DNA from: Trypanosoma brucei | Taxonomy: Eukaryota | DNA length: 64,000 nucleotides | Assembly (NCBI GenBank): GCA_000002445.1 | Contig: CH464491.1 | Span: 3,072,001 to 3,136,000, forward strand | Reading direction: 5' to 3' | The notes under the pieces: model-generated | What the model was told of the DNA's origin: nothing | What the model saw: only the letters and a program-made list of their open reading frames with translations | The model's database searches: none | In this document: one piece after another, positions 23,953-51,364 of the stretch | Layout: each line of letters starts with the position of its first letter | Numbering within the stretch: the stretch's first letter is position 1 | Translations under genes and position numbers: made by a program

Positions 23953-25614
23953 ATGGCGGCAACAGGTTCACGAGAAGAAATGATGGAGGCCTTGAATAAG
24001 GCAAGACAGGCAATGGCCCGTCGTGTTCCGACTCCAACGGCGTCAACAGTACAATCATCATCCGAACATGATCCGTCGGCGAATGTCGGCGTTTTACAGA
24101 TATATGATGCTGCAGATACCTCGTTATGTCGCCATGCTCGCCCGTCGGAAGCAAAAGACAATCGCGCCCACTTCTTCGAAACATGGTGTAAGAAGATCGA
24201 GGTGTTCGTTGCGGATCCGACTAAAACGACGTTAGAGCTTCCCCCTGAACTGTGCGCGAACGACCGTAGGGAGCTTCACAATCTTGCGGAGAAATATAAT
24301 CTCAGTCACCATTCCCGTGGCACGGGGGCGACACGACATCTTGTGCTGAAGAAAGATGCGCTGCACTATAGAATGCCTGATGCTGCTCCAGCCAACATTG
24401 AAGCAATAAAGCGGGACCCTGGAACGAAAGAGTCTAAATTTCACCTTCGTCGCGTAAAGCAGAACCCTGAGGCCCCAGCTGGGTCGATGGGCGCCTTCGG
24501 TGATGAAACGACTGCCGCAATGGTGCACCGCTTGGTGCGTGCAACAGACGAGTATCGAAGAGCAGTCAATGTTGGGTATACTCAAGATGAGCTACTCGCT
24601 TTCGAAACCGGTGAATCAGTTGAGGGAATCCTCCGTAGCGGCGGAGAGCGAGACGCACAGCCCGCAACAAATGCCGATGTTGAGGATCCCACGGGATTAT
24701 GTGCTTCGCCCCCCCGCGCGCGAATTACCGGCGGAGCGGATTACGAGGCGCGCGCGAAGGACTCTTCCGCTGGGGAGAAGTCGAAGGCGGTCTACGATGA
24801 GATGTGTCTTCGGTGCCAGACTCGGTCTCGTGTGGATTATGATATACAGAAATGGGATTGCAATGGGTATTGTGCGAAGTGCACTGCGCAGACCATTTGG
24901 AAACTTGTGGAGGTAGAAAATAGCACGGGAATGAGAAGTGCTCAGCGGAAGCATACTCGCGAAGAGTTCGAGAAAGCCGACGAAGCGCTTCCGCAAGAGG
25001 TGCAGCAACCCGAAGAAATCGATAAGGATAACGATGAGGATGATACGATCACGGTGGAAGATGTGGTGGATATGGCGAGCATGAATGACTTTAGCGCTGC
25101 GGATGTGAATTGGATTCGCCGCTTTGCAGTACATCACAGTTCAAAGGAGGTTTGCTGCTCTCTCAGCACACACATAGTGTTTTGCATCGAATTCAACGAC
25201 TTATTGACCATGCGTATTTTCCGTCCCTTCCTTAAGCTACAGGGGAGCACAGACAGCAGCGATGAAAAGAAACGAACAAAGAACGAGTGTGGAGCGTCCT
25301 CTGATGGTTCAACTCTTACTGAAACTCATGGCGCATGGTTTGTGTGGCTACGCGAAGTGAAGCCGGCGGGTGTGGCGCTTTCCACACTGCTAGATGAATT
25401 GGCGGGTTGTACGCCCGAGGGCTACGACCGACTTTGCGTCGCCTTCCCGAACATGTCTGTGTACGGCACGGAGGCAAGCTGTGTGTGCCTTGTCAAACCA
25501 GGCGTGCTGAATATGGAGGGCCTTCAAGCAATGCGGCAGAAGTACGGTGAGCAGAATTTCCGCCTCGCCCAGGAGTTGGAGGTTGCTCTTGCGGGCGATA
25601 GCAAGCCCGCGTAA
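23953..25614 (+). CDS. R3H-domain protein with a C-terminal Cys cluster (putative single-stranded nucleic-acid binding)
   Basis: LELPPELCANDRRELHNLAEKYNLSHHSRGTGATRHLVLKK fits the R3H pattern (L-x-F/L-P-x-L-x3-R-x2-I/L-H-x-L-A-x3-G/N-L-x-S-x-S-x-G-x-G-x2-R-x-V/L-x-V/L). Downstream lies CLRCQTRSRVDYDIQKWDCNGYCAKCTAQ, a possible zinc-binding module. I recognise no other homology. Confidence 0.55.
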   Translation: MAATGSREEMMEALNKARQAMARRVPTPTASTVQSSSEHDPSANVGVLQIYDAADTSLCRHARPSEAKDNRAHFFETWCKKIEVFVADPTKTTLELPPELCANDRRELHNLAEKYNLSHHSRGTGATRHLVLKKDALHYRMPDAAPANIEAIKRDPGTKESKFHLRRVKQNPEAPAGSMGAFGDETTAAMVHRLVRATDEYRRAVNVGYTQDELLAFETGESVEGILRSGGERDAQPATNADVEDPTGLCASPPRARITGGADYEARAKDSSAGEKSKAVYDEMCLRCQTRSRVDYDIQKWDCNGYCAKCTAQTIWKLVEVENSTGMRSAQRKHTREEFEKADEALPQEVQQPEEIDKDNDEDDTITVEDVVDMASMNDFSAADVNWIRRFAVHHSSKEVCCSLSTHIVFCIEFNDLLTMRIFRPFLKLQGSTDSSDEKKRTKNECGASSDGSTLTETHGAWFVWLREVKPAGVALSTLLDELAGCTPEGYDRLCVAFPNMSVYGTEASCVCLVKPGVLNMEGLQAMRQKYGEQNFRLAQELEVALAGDSKPA

Positions 25615-25939
25615 GCACCGATGCAGTGCTTTCGCATCTTTTTTTTTGTACGGGACGTTCACGGATTTAGTACGTGTTTCACTAAGAGTACAGTGATTCC
25701 TCCCTGTTCACTTTTTCTTCTTTTATTATTCTCTGTGTGCTGTGGAATATGCAAACGCGGATAGGTCTGCTTACACGAGCCTCTACGCGTTTACATTCTC
25801 AGTCAGTCTCAGCGATGAACCGTCGGTAATAAAAGCTTTACGGTTCTTCCCCCAAGAGAAGAAAACAAAAAAAGATAAGCTAACTTACGAGGGAAGGGAA
25901 GAAAGGCCTCCTCTTGTGCATTCATCTCCCACCTGCTGC

Positions 25940-28378
25940 ATGCGCCTGGCTGCTGAATCTTCTCTTGTCTTCTTTGTATCACACTTTTACTTTGAACGTT
26001 TTTTTTCTTTTGTGATGGTTGCTTACACACTTGATACGCTGTTTGCGTCAGACATAGACAGTGCGACTTTGTTTTATTCAGAAGGTTGTGGCCCCATTCG
26101 CCTTGTGGCCCTGTCAGCACAGATGCGGCGCTTAGTGCGTCTCGGGCCTATTCGCGTCGCGAAGGCGTGCGTTGAAGTGCGGCCAATGGCACCCACAAAA
26201 GAATTTTTTGAGGAAGGCCGTCAGTTGCAGCACATTGAGGCTGCTGGCGTTGGTGATTTCCCCGATAGTGAACGCAGCGGTGACACCTTTGTCAATCCAT
26301 TCACAGGACGCCTTACGCCAACTTGGGGGCGTGTGGCGAAGGAACTTTTCTCCCTTGGGTTTGAACACAGCATTGTGAACCCCTTTCGGCTTGTTTGGAA
26401 TCCCACGAAAGCTGCACTGGTAAGCGACGCTGCACTGCAACCGTTCCGGACTTCAACGGTAACGTGGCGAAGAAACCTCGCAGCACTACTGTCCCGGAGA
26501 GATGCTGCGGATGCGGTGGGGGAAGAGATCCATCGTCTGTACAATGAAATCACAAGCGCGTATTTACCACCCAAATTGGATACCATGCATGACCCTCGTC
26601 TGTCGACGATGACAATGACACCCGATCAGCAAAATGTTATTAGGTGTGCTCTCCGCGGGTACAGCATGTTCATTGGTGGAAGTGCCGGAACAGGTAAAAC
26701 GGTGCTGCTAAAGGCAATTCACAGAAAACTTACTGAGATGGGATTGCGAGTGGCCATGACAGCAACGACGGGCGTCGCGTCCGTACAGTTAGGTGGCTGC
26801 ACGTTTCATCTGGCATTTGGTGTACCCATCAAGGGGGAAGAGGGAACAAGGAAACGATGGGACTCCAATGCGTTTCGTGCAGTGGATGTGGTGATTATTG
26901 ATGAGGTTTCGTTACTGGACGCAGAACTGTTTGAAACCTTTGAGGAAGAGGCCCGAATGGCTCGATTGCAACAGTCGCCGTTTGGTGGGCTTCAGGTGAT
27001 CGCGTGTGGAGATTTTCTGCAGCTTGCAATGATGGACGTAAGCATTGGTGGCCCGTGCTATCAAAGTCATGCCTTTCGACATCTTATTCCCGTCTGTTTA
27101 GTTACTTCAATGCGCCAAGCGCAGGGCGATCCATTCTGCGAGTTGCTAGGGCAGCTGCGTGTGGGCAAGTTTGACAAGAAAGCCTTCAAAGCATTGGATC
27201 GTCCCGTAAGTGGGGACGCAAACAATGTTACGTACATATTCCCAAGGCGCTGTGATGCACAGAGGTTGAACGATGAGAAACTGTGCGAGTTGCGAAGCGA
27301 AGAAATGATATTTGCTCCACAGCGGGGTCCCCTTCAGCTGGTTGGGAATTTCACTCCAGCTGGTCTGGTAGACTGGGGACGGAAAAAGGACTTTCCCAAG
27401 CGTGAAAAGATCATTACAGTACTTTCTGAGGAAATCAAAAGAATTACCGGAGTGGACATTGTGGACCATAATATTGTAGTGATGCCCGCCGGTGGGGAGA
27501 AGAACGCGGTTCTCATTCGTCTCCGCCACTCAGAAGATAGAAATGTGCTGATATGCAAGAATGGCGGGTCCAAAGAACACGGTGCTAGCAATGAAGGGGG
27601 CGCTGAAGAGAGTCATTGGAGAGCTATATTAGAAGCAACTGCTGGGCGACTCAAGGGAAAGCTTCATCAGATTTACAATCAGGATCCGCACAACTTTATT
27701 CCTCCAAGTGTGTCTTTAATGCTTGCCGATGCTTCTTTGCATCCCAATGCCGAACTCATCTCACCACTTCGACTAAAGCTTGGCTGCCGCGTAATGATTA
27801 ACAGAAACCTCTCACGAACTGTATCCAATGGTAGTGTAGGTATTGTAGAGGCGTTTGCTGCACCCAACTTGGATCTATTTCCCCGCCGCCATGAGACATC
27901 ACCAAAAGCATTCCACACTTGGTCTTTGGAGAGGAATGGATTCCAGCGACTGCCTATTGTCCGTCTACTCAGTGGTGAAGTGGTGCAGCTCCCACCTCTT
28001 TCTGTCATGATTGGTGGCACTCCATCGACTTATTTTTACGGTCATGAACTGTTCGTGCTCCCACTGCAGTTAGGTTACGGCTTCACAGTACACAAAGTCC
28101 AGGGGCTAACACTTGAGGGAACTGTGGTCCTGGATTGTAAGAAATTTTTCGAGTGCCCACATCTCGTCTACGTGGCCTGCTCCCGCGTACGTTCTATGGA
28201 CCAACTGATCGTCAGGAACGTGCGGAGTGATATGATTATTGTTCGACAAAGTGCTTTGGACTTCACAAATGCACTGAGGGATGCGTCTGTGATGTCAAGC
28301 CTCGATCCGCCGGATGGCTGCACCCGAGCCTCTTGGGTGCGCCGTCTCAGTCCGTTACTTGTTGGTTTGACGGACTGA
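25940..28378 (+). CDS. PIF1-family 5'-3' DNA helicase
   Basis: Walker A (GSAGTGKT), motif Ia (MTATTGVASVQLGG), Walker B (VVIIDEVSLLDAELFE) and the PIF1-signature-like LQVIACGDFLQL all fall in the expected order. C-terminal helicase motifs (GFTVHKVQGLTLE, YVACSRVRS) are also present. The ORF-track start at 25742 is GTG, and in-frame ATGs occur at 25940, 26015 and 26123. The 26123 ATG gives MRRLVRLGPIRVAKA, a presequence-like N-terminus, so the 5' boundary is uncertain. Confidence 0.8.
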   Translation: MRLAAESSLVFFVSHFYFERFFSFVMVAYTLDTLFASDIDSATLFYSEGCGPIRLVALSAQMRRLVRLGPIRVAKACVEVRPMAPTKEFFEEGRQLQHIEAAGVGDFPDSERSGDTFVNPFTGRLTPTWGRVAKELFSLGFEHSIVNPFRLVWNPTKAALVSDAALQPFRTSTVTWRRNLAALLSRRDAADAVGEEIHRLYNEITSAYLPPKLDTMHDPRLSTMTMTPDQQNVIRCALRGYSMFIGGSAGTGKTVLLKAIHRKLTEMGLRVAMTATTGVASVQLGGCTFHLAFGVPIKGEEGTRKRWDSNAFRAVDVVIIDEVSLLDAELFETFEEEARMARLQQSPFGGLQVIACGDFLQLAMMDVSIGGPCYQSHAFRHLIPVCLVTSMRQAQGDPFCELLGQLRVGKFDKKAFKALDRPVSGDANNVTYIFPRRCDAQRLNDEKLCELRSEEMIFAPQRGPLQLVGNFTPAGLVDWGRKKDFPKREKIITVLSEEIKRITGVDIVDHNIVVMPAGGEKNAVLIRLRHSEDRNVLICKNGGSKEHGASNEGGAEESHWRAILEATAGRLKGKLHQIYNQDPHNFIPPSVSLMLADASLHPNAELISPLRLKLGCRVMINRNLSRTVSNGSVGIVEAFAAPNLDLFPRRHETSPKAFHTWSLERNGFQRLPIVRLLSGEVVQLPPLSVMIGGTPSTYFYGHELFVLPLQLGYGFTVHKVQGLTLEGTVVLDCKKFFECPHLVYVACSRVRSMDQLIVRNVRSDMIIVRQSALDFTNALRDASVMSSLDPPDGCTRASWVRRLSPLLVGLTD

Positions 28379-39126: not shown

Positions 39127-39753
39127 GAGCATGGATAAAGACGCACCGGGTCTGTTGCTTGGTGGTGATGGTGGGTGCATGCTTGTTGCTGACGTAAAGA
39201 GGTCGCAACGGAAAAGAAAAAAAAAGATGAATGAATGAGGATTCCCGTACATGGCGAACGAATGGGAAGGCACTGCAGACAGAGAAGATTAAGGGAGGAA
39301 GAGGAGGTAACACCAGTGGTAGCTATTTGGTATCTCGATTGAGTTACTGACAAATCCGAATGATATCGACTCTTGCCTCGCTCTTTTGCACGAGCCCCCG
39401 TCTCTTTCCACGTGACGGATTCCGTTTATCCGGTGGTGGTGGTGGTGGTGATAGCTTCTGTAAGGTGATCAGACTTCCGTGTATTCAATGTGGAAGCTTG
39501 TCGATCGCCGGCAGTAGGGCGGCTGGTTGATGGCACCCGTTTGACCTCTTTCGAGAAAGTACCGTGGTTGGAGCCATCTCCTTCCTCCGCTTGATTATGC
39601 TAGCGAAAGTAATGTTGTAAATAAACAATTTAAAACACGCATACTGCCACTGTGCACGCGCATTACTTTATTTGTTATCATGCTGTACCTGTTTACTTGA
39701 TGTTTATTTCCTTCTACTACTTCAAAAGGGTCTTCCTCGTTTGCCAGGTAAAA

Positions 39754-41847
39754 ATGAGAGAAAAGGAAGCACATAAGGGTAGGAATGGTGTGCTAAATGT
39801 TTCAAATCTTCCTGGTGAACATACATCTCTGGACAGCATAGGACAGCTGCACGACGCTCTTACCGGTGGCAATTGCAAGAGATATGTGTCCATTACCGCG
39901 CAGCACGACAGTCTTCTGTCTCTCACCCTCTCCCCTTCCCTTGCGAGTGCTGTTCAGCACATTACATCTCTCACTGCATCGCACAACCGGTTGAGCACAC
40001 TTCAGGGTATTGAGGCGTTTGTGTGCCTTGAGTTTCTTGACCTGAGCCACAACGCACTACGCATCTTAGACGCGCACTCAACAACGCTGCTGCGGAAACT
40101 TCGGTGCCTCAAGCGATGCAATTTTTCATATAATGAGATATGTATGGCTGACTTCGACACGACATTCCGCTGTGGTATTTCACATAATGAGTCAGGCGCA
40201 AATAAGGAAGGTGGTATTGCCTCAGCAGCAACACCGATGGCATCAGCCGGATCGGTGGGACCCGCAGTTCCCGGATTTTTAGAAGAACTCACCCACCTCG
40301 ATTTGTCTCACAATCAGCTCATTGAGGTGCCGGATCTTCGTTGTATACCAGTATTAGAGGAACTGAATCTTAGCTACAATCGCATCGATCTCATTGCAGA
40401 TCTTGATAACCGTTTGCCACTTCTGCGGCTCTGCTCGTTCTCCATCAGCCACAACTCACTTGCCGTTCTGCCGTCATTACTTCCCCTCACCGTGTTGGCA
40501 GGGACACTTTGCGTTCTGAATGTCGCGGGGAACCCCTGCGTACAGGACTTTGAATCAACTGATCCCGCGATGGGGGGTATTCGCGCTTGGTTGTTGTGGC
40601 TTCTGCCTTACCTCGAGTTGTTAGACGAGGTGCCCCTCACCACAGAGGAACGCCAGATAGCCTGCAAGCTTTTCCGTAGGAACAATAAACTTAGTTATGA
40701 GCTTATGGATGTGATGAATACCAATAATGGTACCCAGCTGGTTTCGTACTTGCGAAAGTTCACTCAGAGGACCACTTCAAGGTCACTTGTTGGCGCGAGA
40801 GAGTCGGTAAGAGAGAAGTCTCCACCTTCGCCCAACCCGGCCGTCGGTGCTGTAAACGGAGGCGTCATCAACAATGTTGGTGGAATCCGCTTTGCCACCG
40901 GTGCCGTGTTCCCCTCCGCCTCGCCCTCGCCGGCGGCGGATGGCACCGTGCGGAGAACGAGCTCGAAGCCACAGCCCATTGAGCTTGTTGTGCAGATGCT
41001 CCAGTGGAAGGTAAGGCAACTGTCAAACGTCATGGAGGTTCTTTGGCAAGAGAGTATGGCAAGACGCGTATTTGCCGTAAGGGTGCTACAGAGGCACGTT
41101 CGGGGGTTCTTGGCCCGGCGACAACTTCCAGAAGTCGTCCACAGAACCTGTACGCGCATAAGGACCAACATGTTAGCCAGTGGGCAACGACCTTATTTCC
41201 CTGACCAACGGAGGTCAGCGAAAGCCGATACCACCTTGAGTGTTGTGCGTTCGTTGGGCTGCGAAAGTATCAGTACCGCTGAAAGCGAACACAGTGTTCA
41301 CACCGAAATTATGCAGCGCATCGACAACTTCGACCATTTGTTCCGGCAAATGGAGGAGGAGTTGCACAAATTTAGGATATTCTGGGCCCGTACCAGAGAA
41401 AAGTCTGTCGTCGTGGTTCAGAAGTACTACCGCGGCTACCTTGACCGCAAACGGTGGCGAAACCTCAAGGAGAGCTATGATGTCTTCATCGACTCGCTGC
41501 GACCGTACGTTGTTGAATTGCAACGGGTATCCCGTGGTTATGTATCGCGAGCTCGGCTGGCGAAAGATTCCCGGCAGTTAAGGGAGATGAGCCGGCTTCG
41601 AGGAGAGGTGGCGGGGCTGCGTGCTGCCGTGGATGAAATGAGGGCCATACTGCAGCAGTATGCGCAAAAGCAACGACGTGGGGATCCGGAAAGCCCAGTG
41701 GTAGAGTCGCCCACAAAGCGTGCAGTTGCGCATAGCATCCCCCTCGCCAAAAACAGCGCAGCCAACACGGGCACCACACTTACCGCTGCCGCTACTGCAG
41801 CCGCCGCGCAGGCATCCGCTGTGGCTCGTATCAGCCCGGAACTTTGA
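39754..41847 (+). CDS. Leucine-rich-repeat protein with IQ calmodulin-binding motifs
   Basis: The ORF-track start at 39652 is GTG, and the first ATG at 39754 gives MREKEAHKG. SDS22-like LRRs are present (LDLSHNALRILD; LDLSHNQLIEVPDLRCIPVLEELNLSYNRIDLIADL; SISHNSLAVLPSLLPLTVL). At least two IQ motifs follow (RVLQRHVRGFLARRQL; VVVQKYYRGYLDRKRWRNL), then a coiled-coil-like tail (RLRGEVAGLRAAVDEMRAILQQYAQKQ). Confidence 0.6.
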   Translation: MREKEAHKGRNGVLNVSNLPGEHTSLDSIGQLHDALTGGNCKRYVSITAQHDSLLSLTLSPSLASAVQHITSLTASHNRLSTLQGIEAFVCLEFLDLSHNALRILDAHSTTLLRKLRCLKRCNFSYNEICMADFDTTFRCGISHNESGANKEGGIASAATPMASAGSVGPAVPGFLEELTHLDLSHNQLIEVPDLRCIPVLEELNLSYNRIDLIADLDNRLPLLRLCSFSISHNSLAVLPSLLPLTVLAGTLCVLNVAGNPCVQDFESTDPAMGGIRAWLLWLLPYLELLDEVPLTTEERQIACKLFRRNNKLSYELMDVMNTNNGTQLVSYLRKFTQRTTSRSLVGARESVREKSPPSPNPAVGAVNGGVINNVGGIRFATGAVFPSASPSPAADGTVRRTSSKPQPIELVVQMLQWKVRQLSNVMEVLWQESMARRVFAVRVLQRHVRGFLARRQLPEVVHRTCTRIRTNMLASGQRPYFPDQRRSAKADTTLSVVRSLGCESISTAESEHSVHTEIMQRIDNFDHLFRQMEEELHKFRIFWARTREKSVVVVQKYYRGYLDRKRWRNLKESYDVFIDSLRPYVVELQRVSRGYVSRARLAKDSRQLREMSRLRGEVAGLRAAVDEMRAILQQYAQKQRRGDPESPVVESPTKRAVAHSIPLAKNSAANTGTTLTAAATAAAAQASAVARISPEL

Positions 41848-42463: not shown

Positions 42464-43513
42464 ATGGTAGCGAAGCTGCAGCACAATCCAGCTCCCACGA
42501 CACTTAACTTCTATGAGAAAAGCTTCCAACAGCTTAGTGACGTCCAACAGCGGCAAACCGGCCTTCTCATTGGAGCCGCCGTGGGAGATGCGGCGGCACG
42601 CGCCCTCGATGGCTACACGGCCGAGGAGGTTGCCGCCGTCGCAGCTGAGAGTGGGTCATTGCAGGATGAGGACGAAGATCCCGTAGTATTCGCTTCTGTT
42701 ACCCCACGTGAGCATAAGTCTGGTTTGCTTCGTCACCACTCTTACACGTTTTACCTCTTTTCACAGCTACTGCGGGTCATGGCTACTTCCCGTGGTGACT
42801 TCCCCGTACAATACGTGAAAAACGAATGGGTGGCCACCGCCAGGGCTCATCCTGATTGCTTTGTCCGCGAGCACGCTTCACTGCTGCATGTTTTGTGCAT
42901 CACCATGCAACTACCGGTCATTTACCCATGGGCTGACGACAGCACGTTGCGTGAATACGCGAGTGACTTTTTGGAGTTCCTCACGGAAACGCCGGCGGAA
43001 CGGGCAGTCGCCTCACGCGAAGACGTGTATGCCTACACTAATAGTGTCTTGGGCGTTGCTCTTCGCTGTCTGCAAAGTAATCCTGATCCGTATCGGAATG
43101 CCGCATTTATGGCCGCTCCCGGGACCGCTCATGTCTTTCCCGACGACCTGGCATTGTATTGCCCACCGGCTCTGGTGGGATCTTCACACTCTCGTACCGA
43201 AGAATTAAGTGAAGCAGACAGCAAAACAGTTCCCTTGTTTCCTGCGCGGCTCCTCGAGAGCGATGTACGCGTCGTGCGTGAATGTTTAGTTGTGGCGCGA
43301 GGGGCAGCATCGTTCGCCGAGGGCATTAAAGCAGCCATTCACCTCGGTGGACCCGTCTGTCAACGTAGCCTTATTGTAGGTGCACTACTTGGAGCACGAA
43401 TGGGAGTCCGCCGCATTCCCATAAGCTGGTTAAGTGCGACCTACGACCATGTCCCCCTCGTCACACTTGCGTTGCAGGTTGCACAGTGGAGTTGGAATCC
43501 ACCGCACCACTGA
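42464..43513 (+). CDS. ADP-ribosylglycohydrolase-fold protein, probably non-catalytic (metal-binding motif lost)
   Basis: The N-terminal GLLIGAAVGDAAARALD matches the ARH family GxLxGxAxGDAxG motif. The C-terminal GGPVCQRSLIVGALLGARMGVRRIPISWL matches the family motif GGDTDT(I/N)AAIAGALxGAxxGxxxIPxxW. The DTDT divalent-cation ligands are replaced by PVCQ. Confidence 0.6.
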   Translation: MVAKLQHNPAPTTLNFYEKSFQQLSDVQQRQTGLLIGAAVGDAAARALDGYTAEEVAAVAAESGSLQDEDEDPVVFASVTPREHKSGLLRHHSYTFYLFSQLLRVMATSRGDFPVQYVKNEWVATARAHPDCFVREHASLLHVLCITMQLPVIYPWADDSTLREYASDFLEFLTETPAERAVASREDVYAYTNSVLGVALRCLQSNPDPYRNAAFMAAPGTAHVFPDDLALYCPPALVGSSHSRTEELSEADSKTVPLFPARLLESDVRVVRECLVVARGAASFAEGIKAAIHLGGPVCQRSLIVGALLGARMGVRRIPISWLSATYDHVPLVTLALQVAQWSWNPPHH

Positions 43514-43969
43514 AAGGGTGGGATGGGACACCGCGTCTCGAGGGTTAGGGAAAGGGGGGAAATGGAAATAAGAGGAACTGACCTTGACCTTCTCCCTTGT
43601 CCGTTACGGCTCTGCTTGCCATTGGGCTGCATTGTCTACTCAAAATGTGAGTATGAGCAGTACAGGTTAATTATTTATGCTTTAGGTAAGTTATTTTCGT
43701 GTGGGGGTGGATGCACTCCTTTTTTTTCTTTTGTCTTTTTATAATTCTTATAGTAAACTCGTGTCGTGGACACTCGGGTGCTCCTCTTCCTGATTGTAGT
43801 AGAGGGAAGAAGTCCGCAGAAACTCAAAGTAGGACTCGGGGCCCTGACCACCGCATTGGTGTAGCTCCTCAGGAGTGCAATTAGGGGATTATAGAGTAAG
43901 GGAAGGGTCCATCAGACAGAAGAGCAACTGCTGTGAATTAAAGGAAAAGAAGGGTCTAGTTGCACAACA

Positions 43970-45439
43970 ATGGGCACCGTGTCTCCGGCACGGCGTGTTG
44001 CGTCACCAGGCAAGGGAAAGCGGTCACCTTCGCGGGGGGAAACTCCAAGTGAAGGCAGAACACGACGTGCGGGGTCAAGTCCTTCCTCACGGCCGGGAAT
44101 GCAAACGGCATCGCAGCGTGCGGCAAGGAAAAAGGAGGTCCGGCGACTCCGTGATGCAGAGCTTCTTCTTGATGAAGCGCCGCTGAGCATGGTGGGAGAA
44201 CGCGCACAGGATGCACTTGAGGCAATGCTACGTGCTTTGGACATACGCCGCAACGCGTCGGCAACGCCCAAGAAAATGCAGCCGGTATGGCATCACGTAA
44301 AAGCGCTTGTTGTCACTGCTAATCGAGAGGGCCTTCGCCGCGCCTATGCCGCATTTCCGGCAGAGGAAGGTCACTACTTTTTCGGGAAGGCTCTGTCCAC
44401 ACTTGAGTATTCTGCAAGCACCGTCAACACAGCAGCGGACGGTGGTGAGTTTGCGGAGTGTCCGCTGCTTCTCAGTCACCTAATGGAGGCGACGCTCAAC
44501 AACATTGCTTTTCAACAATATATCGCGCATGAGCCTCCGGAGGCCATTTTGAAAACCCTCCAGCGGGCACTGAAGGTGCAGCACCATCAAGCGTTTAGAA
44601 CCTTGACATTGTATAACATGGCTGTTGCTTTTCTAGCCGCGCGACGGTATGAAGATGCTACAGAATTTGTTGCACGTTGCAGTCAAGTGGCCGAAGTGTG
44701 CTTGGAACTTGAAGTTTCGCTGACACGGGAGATATCATCACTCTACAAGGAATATCACACAATGGTCGCTACCCACGCCATTATGTGTCATCATTTACTT
44801 GCAGGGCTAGCAGCGTGGAGTGGAGAAAGTGACATGGAGGTGTACCACGCTCAGCTTGCTCTGTGCTGCGCAACGAAGTTCCTTGCAGAGGGTAGCGCGC
44901 TCGTCTCGCGCTGTCAGCAACGACTTACTGCCGCCAAAAGCGGAAACTCGGCAGCTGTGATTGCACAGAGTGACGAACCGCCACGTATGCAAATGATGAC
45001 CGATGACCTCGAGATTCTTGCAAGTCCACTTTTTTTACAGTTTTTACTGGAGACGCAGCGGATGCAGCGAATTGTTTTCCCACCGCTGAAGGGGTTACAA
45101 AGGCGTAAAACGGTAGTGAAACGTGGACAGAGATTAGGATCCGGTAAGTCATCGCCCGAAGTCGAGGCCGAGGACACCGGCCTCACCGGCAGCGCCCCGC
45201 ATCAACCAGCGGTCGACGGTAACGGAGAAGAAGAAAAAGCGGGTACCCACGCTTCCATCAGTTATTCAAGATCTCCGTCGCAGGGGGTCGGTGCAACCAC
45301 CGACGTACGGATTGTATGCTCCCCCGTCGCATGTATTGCCACTGGTTGTGACATGCGTACCGGAGACGGCGTACGAGTGTTACAAAGGTCTTCGCAAGGA
45401 CGTAAGGGGGCTGATGTGCTCTTTGGGTCGACTGCATGA
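43970..45439 (+). CDS. Hypothetical protein with basic S/R/P-rich N-terminus and TPR-like helical region
   Basis: 489-aa ORF in the polycistron orientation. The N-terminal 70 aa are basic and Ser/Pro-rich, and the middle carries helical-repeat-like segments (LYNMAVAFLAARRYEDATEFVARCSQVAE). The last about 50 codons overlap the next ORF (45291..) in another frame, so the 3' end and the relationship to the downstream gene are uncertain. Confidence 0.45.
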   Translation: MGTVSPARRVASPGKGKRSPSRGETPSEGRTRRAGSSPSSRPGMQTASQRAARKKEVRRLRDAELLLDEAPLSMVGERAQDALEAMLRALDIRRNASATPKKMQPVWHHVKALVVTANREGLRRAYAAFPAEEGHYFFGKALSTLEYSASTVNTAADGGEFAECPLLLSHLMEATLNNIAFQQYIAHEPPEAILKTLQRALKVQHHQAFRTLTLYNMAVAFLAARRYEDATEFVARCSQVAEVCLELEVSLTREISSLYKEYHTMVATHAIMCHHLLAGLAAWSGESDMEVYHAQLALCCATKFLAEGSALVSRCQQRLTAAKSGNSAAVIAQSDEPPRMQMMTDDLEILASPLFLQFLLETQRMQRIVFPPLKGLQRRKTVVKRGQRLGSGKSSPEVEAEDTGLTGSAPHQPAVDGNGEEEKAGTHASISYSRSPSQGVGATTDVRIVCSPVACIATGCDMRTGDGVRVLQRSSQGRKGADVLFGSTA

Positions 45440-45458
45440 ACTGAATGCTGCAGATGAA

Positions 45459-48086
45459 ATGATTGAACCGGGAACGTTGGAATCGGGATGTGGACGATCG
45501 CTCTGGAAGCTGAACGACAATACCGCGGAGAGTGCGCCGCCGCCGGGAAGGTACCTCCGAATAACTGATAGGAGACTACGCATGTTGTCCGCCCTTGTGC
45601 GCGACCTTCGCTTCGAAAAACTTCTTGAGGCCGCAATTCTGGCACAAAGCTACTGGCGGGGAATCTTGTCACGCCGGGAGAATAAACACAGGCTGCCGAT
45701 GCTACAGGAACGAATGCGGCAGAGGGAAGCCGTAGAGCTTATACAACATGCGTACCGTAATCATCTTGCCACTCGCGGACCCATCAAAGAGAAGCACGAG
45801 CTTCGGGCTCACCGTCTCTTGGTACAGCGTCTAGTGGTAATTCAACGGCACCTTCGCGGTAGGCAGAGTGTAGTGGAGGAGCGAAACCGTGGCCTAGGTG
45901 TAATTGTGCAATTAAATGAAGCCATTTTAGAGGCCCGACGCCGGGTTGCGGCATCCATTGTCATACAATCTTCCTGGCGCATGTGTGCTGTCCGCATCCG
46001 CATCCTGAGGCTGCTCGCCGCCACAATTCGGGTTCAGTCCGTGTGGCGAGGTCACGTGGGTCGGGTGGAAGCACGTGAGAGGCGGGTCCGTGAGCGGCTG
46101 CGAAAGCAGGACCGATTGGCGGTGCTCCTCCGTCATGTTTATCCGGTCCAAAAGCGGTGGAGAGGTGTGCTGGCGATACGAAAGGCGAAAGAATACGTGG
46201 AAGGTTTGAAGAAAAATGTCGTGGCGTATTTAGAAGAACAAGAGAGGATAGTAGATGCCATGTGGGGTAGATTCAAGTGCGTGGCAAATGTAGAGTTGTC
46301 CGTGTTGAAGATATTGGATGTGCTGCGTGCTTACCGTTCGCGAGAGGAATGTGCTAAAATGTATCCTTCGATGCTCACGCGACGTCGCTTTTTGTTACGC
46401 ATAGTATGGAAGAAACGCGCAACTCATATTGCTGGGATCATGCGTGAGCAGCAACTAACGAAATGGATGTTGCAGCGGCGCCGCGAGGAGGTGGCGGACG
46501 CTGTTCTGCTCCTTCAGTGCGCCGTGCGCCGATGGTTTGCCCAAAGGAAAAGTATGGCCCTGCGCCGGGCGTTAGACTGGACGCATGTATGTGCCCGCAA
46601 GATACAATCCATGTACAAACGTCAAATGGGCCGCCGTATGTTCTTAGAAGCCAAGATGGCTACCAAACTGAGGGAGGAGCAACGTATGATCTCTCAACTG
46701 AGGCACTACTGCGCCTCCAAGATACAGGCAACATGGCGTATGTTCACCGTGTGGCATGAGAATAAGGACTACCTTCATTTCTTGCACCATGGTCGTCATA
46801 AATATGCAACAACTATCAGGAATGCTTGGATCACCTACAGAGAGCGGCAACAGAAGAAAGTAATCATCGGGATGCGTCTTATGGAGCACCAGCAAAAACA
46901 GAGCGCTCAAGAGCAGCTTTTGTCAGTTTTGCGTATCCAAGCCATGGTCCGCATGTTCCTCGTTCGATCCCGAATGCTGCGAGATGGTGTGCAACTGCGA
47001 CCGACGCTGGCCAAGCTGCATCGCTCCGCGAGAAGTATTCAGATGTCCTGGCGTCGACACGCTGCCTATGAGTACGTTTCGCAACTCCGCTTTTCGCGTG
47101 CGTACTACGACCAACACAAGGTGAACATGGAGTCCCTGCACACGTACGCAACCATGATCCAATCTCTGGTGCGGGCAAAGGTCATCAACCCGTGGCTGGT
47201 AGCGGTACGGGAGCTGGAGCTCGAGCAAGCTAGCACAGAAGAGAAAGAAAGAAGACGGGAGAAAATGTTAAAAACATATGCTCTATTTACAAAAGAAAAT
47301 ATGTTCCCCGGCGCAGGTAACAGACTTTCCGCATGCGGCCCCGAAGCCCTTGTGGCGGGAGGAAGAACGTCACTCGATACCGGCTCTTTTGTGACTCCCC
47401 TCCGGAACACAGGTACGAGTTATATCTCTGAGGGTCCATGTTCATTCAGTGTGAAGCTATGTGAAACGTGCGTATTGCCAACTCGGTCAGTGAGTCGCTC
47501 TTGTCTGTCGGGCACGTCGCAATCCGCAGATATTTGCGCGCAGAAGGGTGACGAGCACCAATCGTTGGACACTACTAGCTTACACCAAGTCGATGGCCAG
47601 AGATCACCCTCCTCGGACCAATTAGACGTAGTCAAGTCTTGCACCGCAAACGCTGTTCACCCGCCTTTGCGCAACATGGACACGAGGTCAACTACTATTC
47701 TCGGTTCCTTGTCAGCTATCTTTTCAGGACGCCCTGATCTGGAGGGTTCTGCCGATGGACGCAGAACCTCTGCAGGGTTGAGGGGGAGGGAAACTTCGCA
47801 TTCTTCGTGTCCAGCAGGGTCTGAGTTTGCAAGCGTCACAACATCTGAATATTCTTCCTCTCTATGCTATGATCCAGTTGTTCTTGCCGCGGTGGTTGCA
47901 TTAATTCAGCGCTGCGGTCGTGGATTTCTTTCGCGGGCTTCCACACGACGGAGCCTTCAGAAAAGTGATCGGTGGCTGGCCGCCGTTGATATACAGCGGA
48001 TGTGGCGTGGGTTCTGCGCTCGGCAGCTGGTTGAGGTTTACTACGAGTTCTACACGGAAGAGGTGGAGGTAGCCGCAGCCGAGTAA
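45459..48086 (+). CDS. IQ-motif array protein (at least 14 IQ calmodulin-binding motifs)
   Basis: Repeated [IVL]Q-x3-[RWY]-[GR]-x3-R motifs throughout, for example ILAQSYWRGILSRR, IQHAYRNHLATR, VIQRHLRGRQSV, IVIQSSWRMCAVRIR, IRVQSVWRGHVGRVE and VQKRWRGVLAIRK. The array continues with LQCAVRRWFAQRK, ARKIQSMYKRQMGRR, ASKIQATWRMFTV, LRIQAMVRMFLVRSR, ARSIQMSWRRHAAY, IQSLVRAKVI, LIQRCGRGFLSR and VDIQRMWRGFCARQ. The ORF is open from 45291, overlapping the upstream ORF. 45459 is the first in-frame ATG after the upstream stop at 45437-45439, so the true start is unresolved. Confidence 0.55.
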   Translation: MIEPGTLESGCGRSLWKLNDNTAESAPPPGRYLRITDRRLRMLSALVRDLRFEKLLEAAILAQSYWRGILSRRENKHRLPMLQERMRQREAVELIQHAYRNHLATRGPIKEKHELRAHRLLVQRLVVIQRHLRGRQSVVEERNRGLGVIVQLNEAILEARRRVAASIVIQSSWRMCAVRIRILRLLAATIRVQSVWRGHVGRVEARERRVRERLRKQDRLAVLLRHVYPVQKRWRGVLAIRKAKEYVEGLKKNVVAYLEEQERIVDAMWGRFKCVANVELSVLKILDVLRAYRSREECAKMYPSMLTRRRFLLRIVWKKRATHIAGIMREQQLTKWMLQRRREEVADAVLLLQCAVRRWFAQRKSMALRRALDWTHVCARKIQSMYKRQMGRRMFLEAKMATKLREEQRMISQLRHYCASKIQATWRMFTVWHENKDYLHFLHHGRHKYATTIRNAWITYRERQQKKVIIGMRLMEHQQKQSAQEQLLSVLRIQAMVRMFLVRSRMLRDGVQLRPTLAKLHRSARSIQMSWRRHAAYEYVSQLRFSRAYYDQHKVNMESLHTYATMIQSLVRAKVINPWLVAVRELELEQASTEEKERRREKMLKTYALFTKENMFPGAGNRLSACGPEALVAGGRTSLDTGSFVTPLRNTGTSYISEGPCSFSVKLCETCVLPTRSVSRSCLSGTSQSADICAQKGDEHQSLDTTSLHQVDGQRSPSSDQLDVVKSCTANAVHPPLRNMDTRSTTILGSLSAIFSGRPDLEGSADGRRTSAGLRGRETSHSSCPAGSEFASVTTSEYSSSLCYDPVVLAAVVALIQRCGRGFLSRASTRRSLQKSDRWLAAVDIQRMWRGFCARQLVEVYYEFYTEEVEVAAAE

Positions 48087-48727
48087 GCTTCATGAGGTCA
48101 TCACGGAAGAATAGCAGCTGCCGACGTACATAGGAAACACACCTTTCCCACCCGCTCATTCACATGCGCTGGTCACGCGTGGACTTTTGTTTAAACTTGT
48201 CTTTCTGCTGCTGGAAAGAGTGAGATGTACCCAATAAAGATGAAATGCCGTCATGGTTATCACCGCTACGGCAAGGACCGGGCGTGTAGATATATTGTAC
48301 ATGTTTCTATTAGTTACTTTTCATGTTCTACTCCTCAATCGTCCCAACATACACCCCTCTTTTTCTACTTTAAATTCCCTCCCCTGGGGGTGTGCACACA
48401 GGGCCACAACAACGCTGTATTTCCGATCTCCTTCTTACCTTCTTCATTCATTCCCTTTACTGCTACCTCCTTCTAACACCGTGGCCAGCATATCCCGAGG
48501 CTTTATATATAGGTATATACGCCGGCGTCCGGGAAGATAAGTGATTTTTTTTAAAAAAAGGAAAAAAGAAGGGGTTTCTGCTGGAGCGGTAGCAGGGACA
48601 ATCGTGAAGATAAAAGAGAAAACAGAACTTAATTGGGAAGTCGCTCTTGTGGGGAACGAAAGAGAGGAGAAAAGAGGGAAGGCGCCCGAGGGGAAAGAGC
48701 CAGAAAACTATTGGAGAGGAAGGCATC

Positions 48728-51364
48728 ATGCAACACGACCGTGACCGGTACGACAGCGAGGAAGATGATGAGGAATCTCTCCCTTTCGATGGTATTGAGA
48801 AGGCTTCTGTGCTTCAGCAGTGCCGCGTGTTCAACGACGTGCAGCTCGATATCTCAGCCTGCCTGCGCTGTTTGACGGAGTGCTTATACCTCATTTATAC
48901 GGGAACTACATTTACAGAAGCAGAAGCCACGGAACTTTTCTTTATGTCAACAAAGCTGCTTCAGTCAAATAGATCAAGGTTGCGACGGTTGCACTACGTG
49001 CTGATGAAGGAGCTCAGCCCATTTGTCGAGCAGAGCTTTATTGCATCCAACTCACTTATGGGTGACACCAAAAGCAACAATGAGTCTAATAAGCGAAATG
49101 GTATGCGTACCCTCTGCAAGGTAATGAATCCTTCACTTTACCCTTTGTTGGACCGTACCATCGTGGAGTCCCTCACGTCGCGGAGCGAGAAGGTCCTATT
49201 AGCCTCTCTCATTACAGGCTTCCACGTGGCATTGAGCCACCCCGATTTAGCGCGCAAGTGGAGTACGCAGCTGAACGAAGCCATTCGAGTGCTGGGAAAC
49301 ACGCAATACCTGACTGTCGCGATCATGCATATTATCCGCAAGAGCGACCGCGTTACTGTTAAGCGGTTCATTGAGCAGGTAAGAAATGGGGTGGTTCGGT
49401 CTCCCCTTGCTCTCTCTTTCCTCGTGAAGTTGACAACCGACGTTCTGCAGGAGGGGTTCGAGGAAGATCCCGAGGTCAAAAAATACATTGCCACTATGAG
49501 GCATAGCAGCAGTGAAATTGTGGTGTTTGACACGCTGAGGTGTATGTGTGTGGCCGGCAACGCGTCGCCGCAGCAATTTGCGTTAGTTGCCTCGGTCGCG
49601 CAGATATATTTGAACGCGAAAACCAGTGTATCGCGTTTCTGCGCCATTCGCGTTCTGCACGATCTCGCCGCAATATACCCTGACGCGGTAACACCCATCA
49701 GTTCCGATATTGAGCAGCTCATAATGGATCAAAACCGCTTCACCGCCTCTTTTGCAATGCTAACATTATTGAAAACTGGCACGGAAGCATCTGTTGAGCG
49801 GCTTATCGGTGCGCTTGGTAGTGTGGGACAACTGCGAGAATTACCCGATGAATTCAAGGTGGCTATTACACTCGAACTGCGGAGCGTGAGTGCGAGATTT
49901 CCACAAAGGTATAACTTGTTCCTCGGCTTCCTTGTCAAGCTGCTAAGTGATGATGGCAGCAGCACCTTTAAGGAAAGCATCGTTGAGGTGATTACGAGCG
50001 TAGCAAAAGCGAATGATGGCGCAAGGGAGGCCGCGCTCAAACACCTTGTCGATTATGTCGAAGACTGCGCCCACGTTAGCATTCTTCACCGAGTGCATAT
50101 GTACCTGGGCGATGAAGTTCCACGGTCCGAAAACCCAGCCCTTTTCATCCGCTATATTAACAACCATGCTGCTCTGGAGTTCCCGGAGGTGCGGGCCGCC
50201 GCCGTCAGCACATTCGCGAGAATCGCTGCCCGCGTTCCATCGCTGCGCCGATCTATTCTCCCGTTGTTGAAGCACAAATGTAGCGACGAGGATGACGAGG
50301 TGCGAGACCGCGCCATTATGTACACAAAAGTGTTCTTGCTGGGCGACGAAGACGTGATTCATTCAATGGTGACGGAGGTTTCCAATACCGTGGCCGCGAG
50401 GCGAAAGTTGATAACCCCCATGACCCCCACGCCACTTCTGGAGCCAGTCAAGCGAAGGATGTGCCAAGCGGACCACTCGACGGTGGCGGTTGAAACAGGA
50501 ATTGGTAAAGAAGCGGCTCACAGTAGCAGTGGAGGCGGTTCAGTTCCGGGCAACCAGTACTCCTCGGCAATATCGGAGGGACGTGCAAAACTACTGAAAA
50601 TCAAGCAGTTGCAGGAGCTGGGTGAACCTCGTGCGTCAAGTGAGCCGGTGCCCCTATCAGATCCCGACAGCGAGTACTTTGTAACACTCATTAAGCACGT
50701 ATATGTCGCCCATGTGGTGTTGCAATTTAGGGTCAAAAACACCATGGATAGTGTGGTCTTCCGTCGCGTTACGGTGGAGATGGACACGGAAGAGTTGGAT
50801 GCAGAGCCGCTCTATGCAATACCCATCAGCGCCATCGAGCCTGGAGCTACAGAGTATGCTTATGCGGTTCTACAATACAGCGAAGGGAGGTACCCAAGTG
50901 GGACGCTGGGCTGCCGTATCAAGTTCGCTTTACAGGAGCGTGATGGCAGTAGTGTCGCTGGTGAAGGTGAAGAAGAGTACCCACTTGAGGATTTCGAAGT
51001 CAACGTGAGTGACTTCATTACGCCAATCGATCTTGGTGAATGTTTTCAACAGAAGTGGGAGGAACTTCGGCAAGAGGAAACATGTGGGACGTATGCCTTG
51101 AGCTCCATGCGCAACCTCACTGCTGCCGCGCACGAGCTGGTAGAATTCTTCGGCATGCATGTAGTTGGGGGGAAAGTGGATAAAATTACAGCGGCATCCC
51201 ATACACTTCTTATGTCGGGAAGTATGGTAGATGGCGCAAGTTCGCTCGTGATGATTAACGCTCGTCTGTTCATTGCCACAGACAACACTGTGGCCCTGCA
51301 ACTAACTTTGAGGGGTGGTAGTTCCGAATTGCGTGAATATCTCTCTGGTGCGCTGCTGTCGTAG
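48728..51364 (+). CDS. COPG: Coatomer (COPI) subunit gamma
   Basis: The ORF-track ORF begins at 48647, and I place the start at the ATG at 48728 (MQHDRDRYDSEEDDEESLPF). The N-terminus EKASVLQQCRVFNDVQLDISACLRCLTECLYLIYTGTTFTEAEATELFFMSTKLLQSNRSRLRRLHYVLMKEL aligns with COPG [73 protein letters not shown]. An adaptin-N-like HEAT trunk follows, then a C-terminal appendage. The product is about 878 aa. Confidence 0.85.
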   Translation: MQHDRDRYDSEEDDEESLPFDGIEKASVLQQCRVFNDVQLDISACLRCLTECLYLIYTGTTFTEAEATELFFMSTKLLQSNRSRLRRLHYVLMKELSPFVEQSFIASNSLMGDTKSNNESNKRNGMRTLCKVMNPSLYPLLDRTIVESLTSRSEKVLLASLITGFHVALSHPDLARKWSTQLNEAIRVLGNTQYLTVAIMHIIRKSDRVTVKRFIEQVRNGVVRSPLALSFLVKLTTDVLQEGFEEDPEVKKYIATMRHSSSEIVVFDTLRCMCVAGNASPQQFALVASVAQIYLNAKTSVSRFCAIRVLHDLAAIYPDAVTPISSDIEQLIMDQNRFTASFAMLTLLKTGTEASVERLIGALGSVGQLRELPDEFKVAITLELRSVSARFPQRYNLFLGFLVKLLSDDGSSTFKESIVEVITSVAKANDGAREAALKHLVDYVEDCAHVSILHRVHMYLGDEVPRSENPALFIRYINNHAALEFPEVRAAAVSTFARIAARVPSLRRSILPLLKHKCSDEDDEVRDRAIMYTKVFLLGDEDVIHSMVTEVSNTVAARRKLITPMTPTPLLEPVKRRMCQADHSTVAVETGIGKEAAHSSSGGGSVPGNQYSSAISEGRAKLLKIKQLQELGEPRASSEPVPLSDPDSEYFVTLIKHVYVAHVVLQFRVKNTMDSVVFRRVTVEMDTEELDAEPLYAIPISAIEPGATEYAYAVLQYSEGRYPSGTLGCRIKFALQERDGSSVAGEGEEEYPLEDFEVNVSDFITPIDLGECFQQKWEELRQEETCGTYALSSMRNLTAAAHELVEFFGMHVVGGKVDKITAASHTLLMSGSMVDGASSLVMINARLFIATDNTVALQLTLRGGSSELREYLSGALLS

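Follow-up and report, generated by a model that had tools for sequence, protein, structure and literature searches.

The 64,000-nucleotide (nt) stretch of Trypanosoma brucei brucei TREU927 chromosome 11 analyzed here (contig CH464491.1, positions 3,072,001 to 3,136,000 of the forward strand; hereafter the window) contains two long open reading frames (ORFs) that overlap in different frames on the plus strand. ORF1 (43970-45439) starts with an ATG and encodes 489 amino acids (aa), and ORF2 (45291-48086) encodes 931 aa when counted from a GTG. Both ORFs were already recognized in the original prediction, which was made from the letters of the window. They are very probably the two halves of one gene, Tb927.11.11880, which is apparently split by an extra C and would encode a protein of 1371 aa, a putative IQ/TPR scaffold, on a single mRNA. 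The original prediction placed the overlap at 45291-45439 (149 nt), which is right when counted from the first start codon, but the ORF2 frame is preceded by a TAG at 45135 and is open already from 45138, and the shared stop-free stretch is really 45138-45439, approximately 300 nt. ATG 45459, the first codon of an 875-aa GenBank model, lies 20 nt beyond the stop codon of ORF1 (45437-45439). The GenBank entry EAN80138.1 ("hypothetical protein Tb11.01.3720", 489 aa) is identical to ORF1, and EAN80139.1 (Tb11.01.3730, 875 aa) matches the translation of 45459-48086 without a difference. The split records of TREU927 are also found in RefSeq (XP_829250.1 and XP_829251.1) and UniProt (Q382Z3 and Q382Z2).

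The locus was compared with three sister genomes, T. b. gambiense DAL972, T. b. equiperdum IVM-t1, and T. equiperdum OVI. All three carry one ORF of 4116 nt encoding 1371 aa, compared with 4117 nt in the window. Alignment across the gene shows that the window differs from the sister genomes by one inserted C and 1 to 13 substitutions. The insertion lies in a CCC that reads CC in all three genomes, and it is the sole indel in the 4.1-kb gene. The closest relative is T. equiperdum OVI, which lacks the extra C and is otherwise 1 nt apart from the window over 4.1 kb. When one C is deleted from the window, the resulting 1371-aa product shares 100% identity with the T. equiperdum OVI protein and differs at 2 residues from the T. 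b. gambiense protein, against 13 nucleotide substitutions. Beyond the frameshift, the ORF2 frame is intact for 982 codons. Alignment of the window with each of five Logan contigs covering the gene likewise shows a single gap. The gene order is the same in all three sister genomes, with the 1371-aa ORF located between an ADP-ribosylglycohydrolase-like gene and the gene for coatomer gamma, and the coatomer gamma protein (window 48728-51364) is identical in all three assemblies, in DAL972 as a product of chromosome 11. Exact look-ups of the 489-, 875-, and 931-aa products matched no assembly, in an index that apparently does not hold TREU927 and so says little about the allele.

TREU927 and T. 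b. gambiense are separated by 13 substitutions within 43970-48086, of which only two alter an amino acid. Judged from these sequences, such a low level of amino-acid change fits purifying selection acting on the two halves in a single frame.

Orthologues of the gene encode single proteins in T. congolense (1379 aa), T. cruzi (1497 aa), T. vivax (1452 aa), T. rangeli (1356 aa), T. c. marinkellei (1343 aa), T. melophagium (1399 aa), and Leishmania (1782-1789 aa). Both halves are colinear with one continuous orthologous protein in the alignment. ORF1 follows the N-termini of five aligned Trypanosoma orthologues up to residue 395 (...GSGKSSP), beyond which similarity is lost entirely. The remaining tail of ORF1 is not real coding sequence in its own frame. 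The coding sequence conserved in orthologues continues instead in the ORF2 frame upstream of the annotated ATG 45459, where a conserved linker motif (...VTCVPETAYECYKGLRKDVRGLM) was found, with the invariant residues P464, C470, and R479 encoded at approximately 45360-45407. A comparison of syntenic orthologues had been suggested in the original prediction to decide between one gene and two, and it returned single continuous proteins, the outcome that the prediction had named as refuting two genes. A homologue search with ORF1 alone gave no match, and relatives were found via the ORF2 query and a profile of the N-terminal domain. The 94 stop-free codons of the ORF1 tail are not unusual, as other off-frame runs in the same gene reach 103 and 89 codons. 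We considered a special meaning of the long double-open overlap and dismissed it in view of these comparable runs.

Transcript data point in the same direction. Kolev et al. (2010; PMC2936537) placed Tb11.01.3730 at Tb927_11_01_v4 3117459-3120086 and included it, and not Tb11.01.3720, in Table S2 among the ORFs "not producing a detectable transcript", which according to the authors frequently belong to the transcript of a neighbour. The coordinates of Tb11.01.3730 locate the window at 3,072,001-3,136,000 of Tb927_11_01_v4. The five Logan contigs (4.4-4.6 kb, runs ERR7929156-64) are unbroken over 43758-48344 and encode the intact 1371-aa protein. They start at 43758-43892 and end at 48278-48344, and none of the coatomer gamma contigs from this run series starts before 48411, a pattern that fits gene-sized transcripts. 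The contig ends were inspected for spliced-leader sequence and poly(A), and none was found. A pyrimidine tract followed by AG dinucleotides is present upstream of the start codon (Table 1) and is, from its sequence, the likely spliced-leader acceptor region of a single mRNA. No pyrimidine tract of at least 10 nt occurs anywhere within 43792-47851, hence none near the junction, in agreement with the original prediction that the junction leaves no room for a trans-splicing tract.

The finding is already known, as the split gene is resolved in community annotation as Tb927.11.11880. Benz and Urbaniak (2019), who searched TriTrypDB v37 TREU927 proteins, reported the cell-cycle-regulated phosphosites T1137 and S1139 for Tb927.11.11880 (peptide ...GGRTSLDTGSFVTPLR...) and mapped the gene to "Q382Z2;Q382Z3", i.e., to both UniProt halves. 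The phosphosite numbering matches the corrected 1371-aa protein exactly. This numbering and the assignment of both UniProt halves to one gene indicate that community annotation had joined the models by 2018-19. The RNA interference target sequencing (RIT-seq) table of Marques et al. (2022; PMC9464253) lists 11850 (SF3B1), 11860 (LRRP), 11870, 11880 ("conserved protein"), and 11900 (coatomer gamma), with no 11890, and SF3B1 (Tb927.11.11850) is also located three genes upstream in the sister-genome loci. The merged TriTrypDB model thus occupies the same locus and shares the 1371-aa numbering, the UniProt halves, and the gene order 11850-11860-11870-11880-11900; it differs in that the window and the GenBank record still contain the extra C and the split models. 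No mention of the old or new gene IDs was found in the main texts of the literature searched. The consequence is chiefly one of housekeeping: users of the GenBank and RefSeq records of TREU927 retrieve two truncated proteins in place of one protein of 1371 aa.

Cosentino et al. (2021; PMC8445201) described a similar case, in which Tb927.2.5860 and Tb927.2.5870 are a single gene that was "wrongly split" in TREU927. In both cases, two contiguous models on the same strand of TREU927 correspond to one ORF in another assembly. The published case concerns another locus and protein and is backed by TrypTag tagging data. Tb11.01.3720 and Tb11.01.3730 show the pattern of wrongly split TREU927 genes, being adjacent models on the same strand that form one ORF elsewhere and have no separate transcripts.

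We propose the following explanation. A CC recorded as CCC at 45153-45155 would shift the frame after codon 395, ORF1 would then continue for 94 codons without meaning until it meets a stop by chance at 45439, and the true frame would continue to 48086. The gene would be transcribed and processed as one mRNA of approximately 4.5 kb and translated into a protein of 1371 residues. That a frameshift splits a single gene of about 1400 aa was among the alternatives of the original prediction, and it is borne out by the sister genomes, the orthologues, and the merged annotation. As for the C itself, we infer that the 2005 Sanger reference most likely contains a base-calling or assembly error here, or that at most one of the two alleles carries the base; a fixed mutation that inactivates the gene is considered less likely. 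An error is thought likelier because the near-identical OVI genome lacks the C, the gene carries no further lesion, and curators use the full-length product.

Several points weigh against this explanation. The sequences compared, namely the TREU927 reference and copies from other strains, would fit an error, a heterozygous allele, or a fixed mutation. The RNA-seq and phosphoproteomic support was obtained in YTat 1.1 and Lister 427 and not in TREU927, and the ERR79291xx runs may be RNA or DNA. Calmodulin binding and the scaffold model are drawn solely from motifs and predicted structure. Finally, allele-specific frameshifting indels that cause premature stops have been documented in T. brucei, where they are tolerated without nonsense-mediated decay and the mRNAs concerned are not degraded (Cosentino et al., 2021; PMC8445201).

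Such indels leave some room for the extra C, which is present in the sequence as given, to be a genuine TREU927 mutation on one or both alleles, in which case at least one of them would be a recently formed pseudogene making a 489-residue, TPR-only protein without the IQ array. We consider this unlikely. The C is absent in every other copy in the collections, including that of T. equiperdum OVI; there are no added disabling changes in the long intact downstream frame; the 489-, 875-, and 931-aa products are absent from all assemblies on record; and curators assign the 1371-aa product to the TREU927 gene. Unlikely too is a further reading of a real allele, in which the reference strain TREU927, or one of its haplotypes, naturally produces just the TPR head of this conserved protein, a truncation tolerated since trypanosomes lack nonsense-mediated decay. 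If it were true, the TREU927 allele would be a ready-made tool to ask what the IQ array does.

The original prediction also raised the possibility of an independent downstream gene, starting at ATG 45459 and trans-spliced from signals within the upstream coding sequence. Two genes are what the original 2005 annotation recorded, and the ATG does follow shortly after the ORF1 stop. However, 43792-47851 has no pyrimidine tract of at least 10 nt, Tb11.01.3730 has no transcript of its own, the residues upstream of 45459 are conserved across species in the ORF2 frame but not in the ORF1 tail, and all orthologues are single proteins. The chance that two genes are present is minimal, and the two-gene model is effectively refuted. 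Programmed ribosomal frameshifting at the CCC, which would join in translation two long ORFs that overlap in frames one base apart, is, judged from the sister strains, just as improbable; recoding is unnecessary because these strains, with otherwise identical flanks, encode the same protein in one frame with CC. The coordinates of the single gene and its features are collected in Table 1.

Table 1. Features of Tb927.11.11880 and its flank, in window positions.
Feature	Position	Strand	Remarks
Pyrimidine tract (CTCCTCTTCCT) then AG dinucleotides	43781..43802	+	~170 nt upstream of the ATG; likely spliced-leader acceptor region
Whole gene Tb927.11.11880	43970..48086	+	4117 nt here; 1371 aa after removal of one C
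N-terminal all-helical TPR-like domain	44108..45079	+	Residues 47-370; colinear with all orthologues; AF2, Foldseek
Frameshift site	45153..45155	+	CCC in the window, CC in three sister genomes; sole indel in the 4.1-kb gene
Spurious out-of-frame tail of ORF1	45156..45439	+	94 codons and a stop; aligns with no orthologue
True coding sequence in the ORF2 frame, upstream of annotated ATG 45459	45156..45458	+	Conserved in orthologues
IQ-motif region	45642..48059	+	12 IQ-like motifs at residues 558-1063; conserved C-terminal pair at 1312 and 1341
Codons of phosphosites T1137 and S1139	47379..47387	+	Benz and Urbaniak (2019) supplementary tables; numbering checked on the corrected protein

The protein encoded by the single gene would begin with N-terminal TPR-like helical repeats and a conserved linker, followed by approximately 550 residues of very long helices with 12 IQ-like motifs. 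After these would come a phosphorylated segment of low complexity and, at the C-terminus, a conserved pair of IQ motifs. The AlphaFold2 (AF2) model of residues 47-370 contains 14 helices, with a pLDDT of 81.7 and a pTM of 0.85. Foldseek matched this region to the TPR domains of kinesin light chain, LGN, and BtubC, with E values of 7e-4 to 1e-2 and a probability of approximately 1, at TM-scores of only 0.3-0.5. The Pfam TPR_12 match remained below threshold (15 bits vs. a cut-off of 30.1) and reached E ≤ 0.01 in only 3 of 18 relatives. A profile search with the N-terminal domain retrieved only 22 kinetoplastid-like representatives among 1.84 billion, nearly all of 1260-1790 aa, indicating from the sequences retrieved that the protein is restricted to kinetoplastid-like organisms.

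The IQ array was detected over the whole protein by Pfam PF00612 (E = 2.6e-14, 52 bits vs. a gathering cut-off of 20.3), and PF00612 matched 16 of the 18 family members tested. The number of motifs depends on the definition used. The original prediction counted at least 14, which agrees with the 14 motifs of a loose pattern of the [ILVMA]Q..[hydrophobic][RK] type (residues 558-1341, spacing 23-41 aa) but not with the PF00612 profile, which gave only 7 stretches even at a lenient E ≤ 10, nor with the strict pattern IQxxxRGxxxR, which gave only 3. Of the 14 motif positions, 12-13 retain the hydrophobic-Q...R core across the 18 family members, and the G at position +6 of the motif is often replaced by M, R, or A. 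The AF2 model of residues 535-1100 (pTM 0.22) shows no compact fold and consists of helices of 82, 132, 130, 63, and 59 residues. These predicted helices are compatible with a scaffold clad in light chains; judging from the motifs, calmodulin or calmodulin-like light chains would coat the long helices, and a partner may dock on the TPR head.

No motor, CH, or other catalytic domain was found in a Pfam scan of the protein. A sequence search of the PDB revealed no close relative and no solved trypanosome structure with the protein, only weak IQ-level matches to Chlamydomonas FAP305 and the myosin-Ic neck. The original prediction had likened the array to those of ASPM or myosin necks, in which IQ motifs are spaced regularly at approximately 23-25 aa. 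The comparison is broadly right for an IQ array, as Tb927.11.11880 also has repeated IQ-type motifs on long predicted helices, but the spacing is looser here, the motor and CH domains are absent, and the N-terminal part is a TPR-like domain.

The original prediction had also suggested a role in flagellar or cytoskeletal structures, which finds no support here, as the sole location term found for Tb927.11.11880 is "cytoplasm". In the table of Marques et al. (2022; PMC9464253), the only flag in the row of this gene is "yes" for cell-cycle-regulated phosphorylation, and, by our own reading of the values, the cell-cycle data after RNA interference show no marked shift. The same study described Tb927.10.970, a protein of the paraflagellar rod with a TPR motif and a string of IQ motifs, the knockdown of which leads to endoreduplication. 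The overall architecture of the two proteins is alike, with a TPR-type region at the N-terminus and several IQ motifs behind it, and both show cell-cycle-regulated phosphorylation. They differ in location and in knockdown phenotype. Tb927.11.11880 is nothing surprising in kind. It is conserved from Trypanosoma to Leishmania and functionally uncharacterised, and it may interest the field of kinetoplastid calcium/calmodulin signalling.

Two further observations concern the family. The T. cruzi YC6 orthologue has three tandem copies of the conserved C-terminal module (LVQLVQRCGRG...DIQRVWRGYCSRQLVEVYYEF), against a single copy in the other species (alignment columns ~1560-1869); this is either a true tandem duplication or an assembly effect. 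In two environmental relatives from metagenome/ENA contigs, the gene is broken into adjacent pieces on one contig (450, 337, and 432 aa in one, 804 and 546 aa in the other), and the same sort of frameshift split recurs in this long gene.

Several neighbouring genes on the plus strand were also identified. The gene at 42464-43513, Tb927.11.11870, encodes 349 aa with a weak ADP-ribosylglycohydrolase match (PF03747, E = 1.3e-8) and is named "Mitoribosomal SSU assembly factor 23" in a 2022 table (Marques et al., 2022; PMC9464253). The protein is apparently an enzyme fold that has been co-opted for ribosome assembly. Two genes upstream of Tb927.11.11880, at 39652-41847, lies a gene for an LRR protein in which Pfam also detects an IQ motif (LRR_4/LRR_8 and IQ, E = 1.3e-10). 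The annotated length of this protein is 715 vs. 697 aa between genomes, presumably owing to start-codon choice. Further upstream, an R3H-domain ORF (23953-25614) is followed 128 nt on by an ORF containing a PIF1-like helicase (25742-28378), and this short gap probably only reflects a mechanical extension of the ORF upstream to a GTG.

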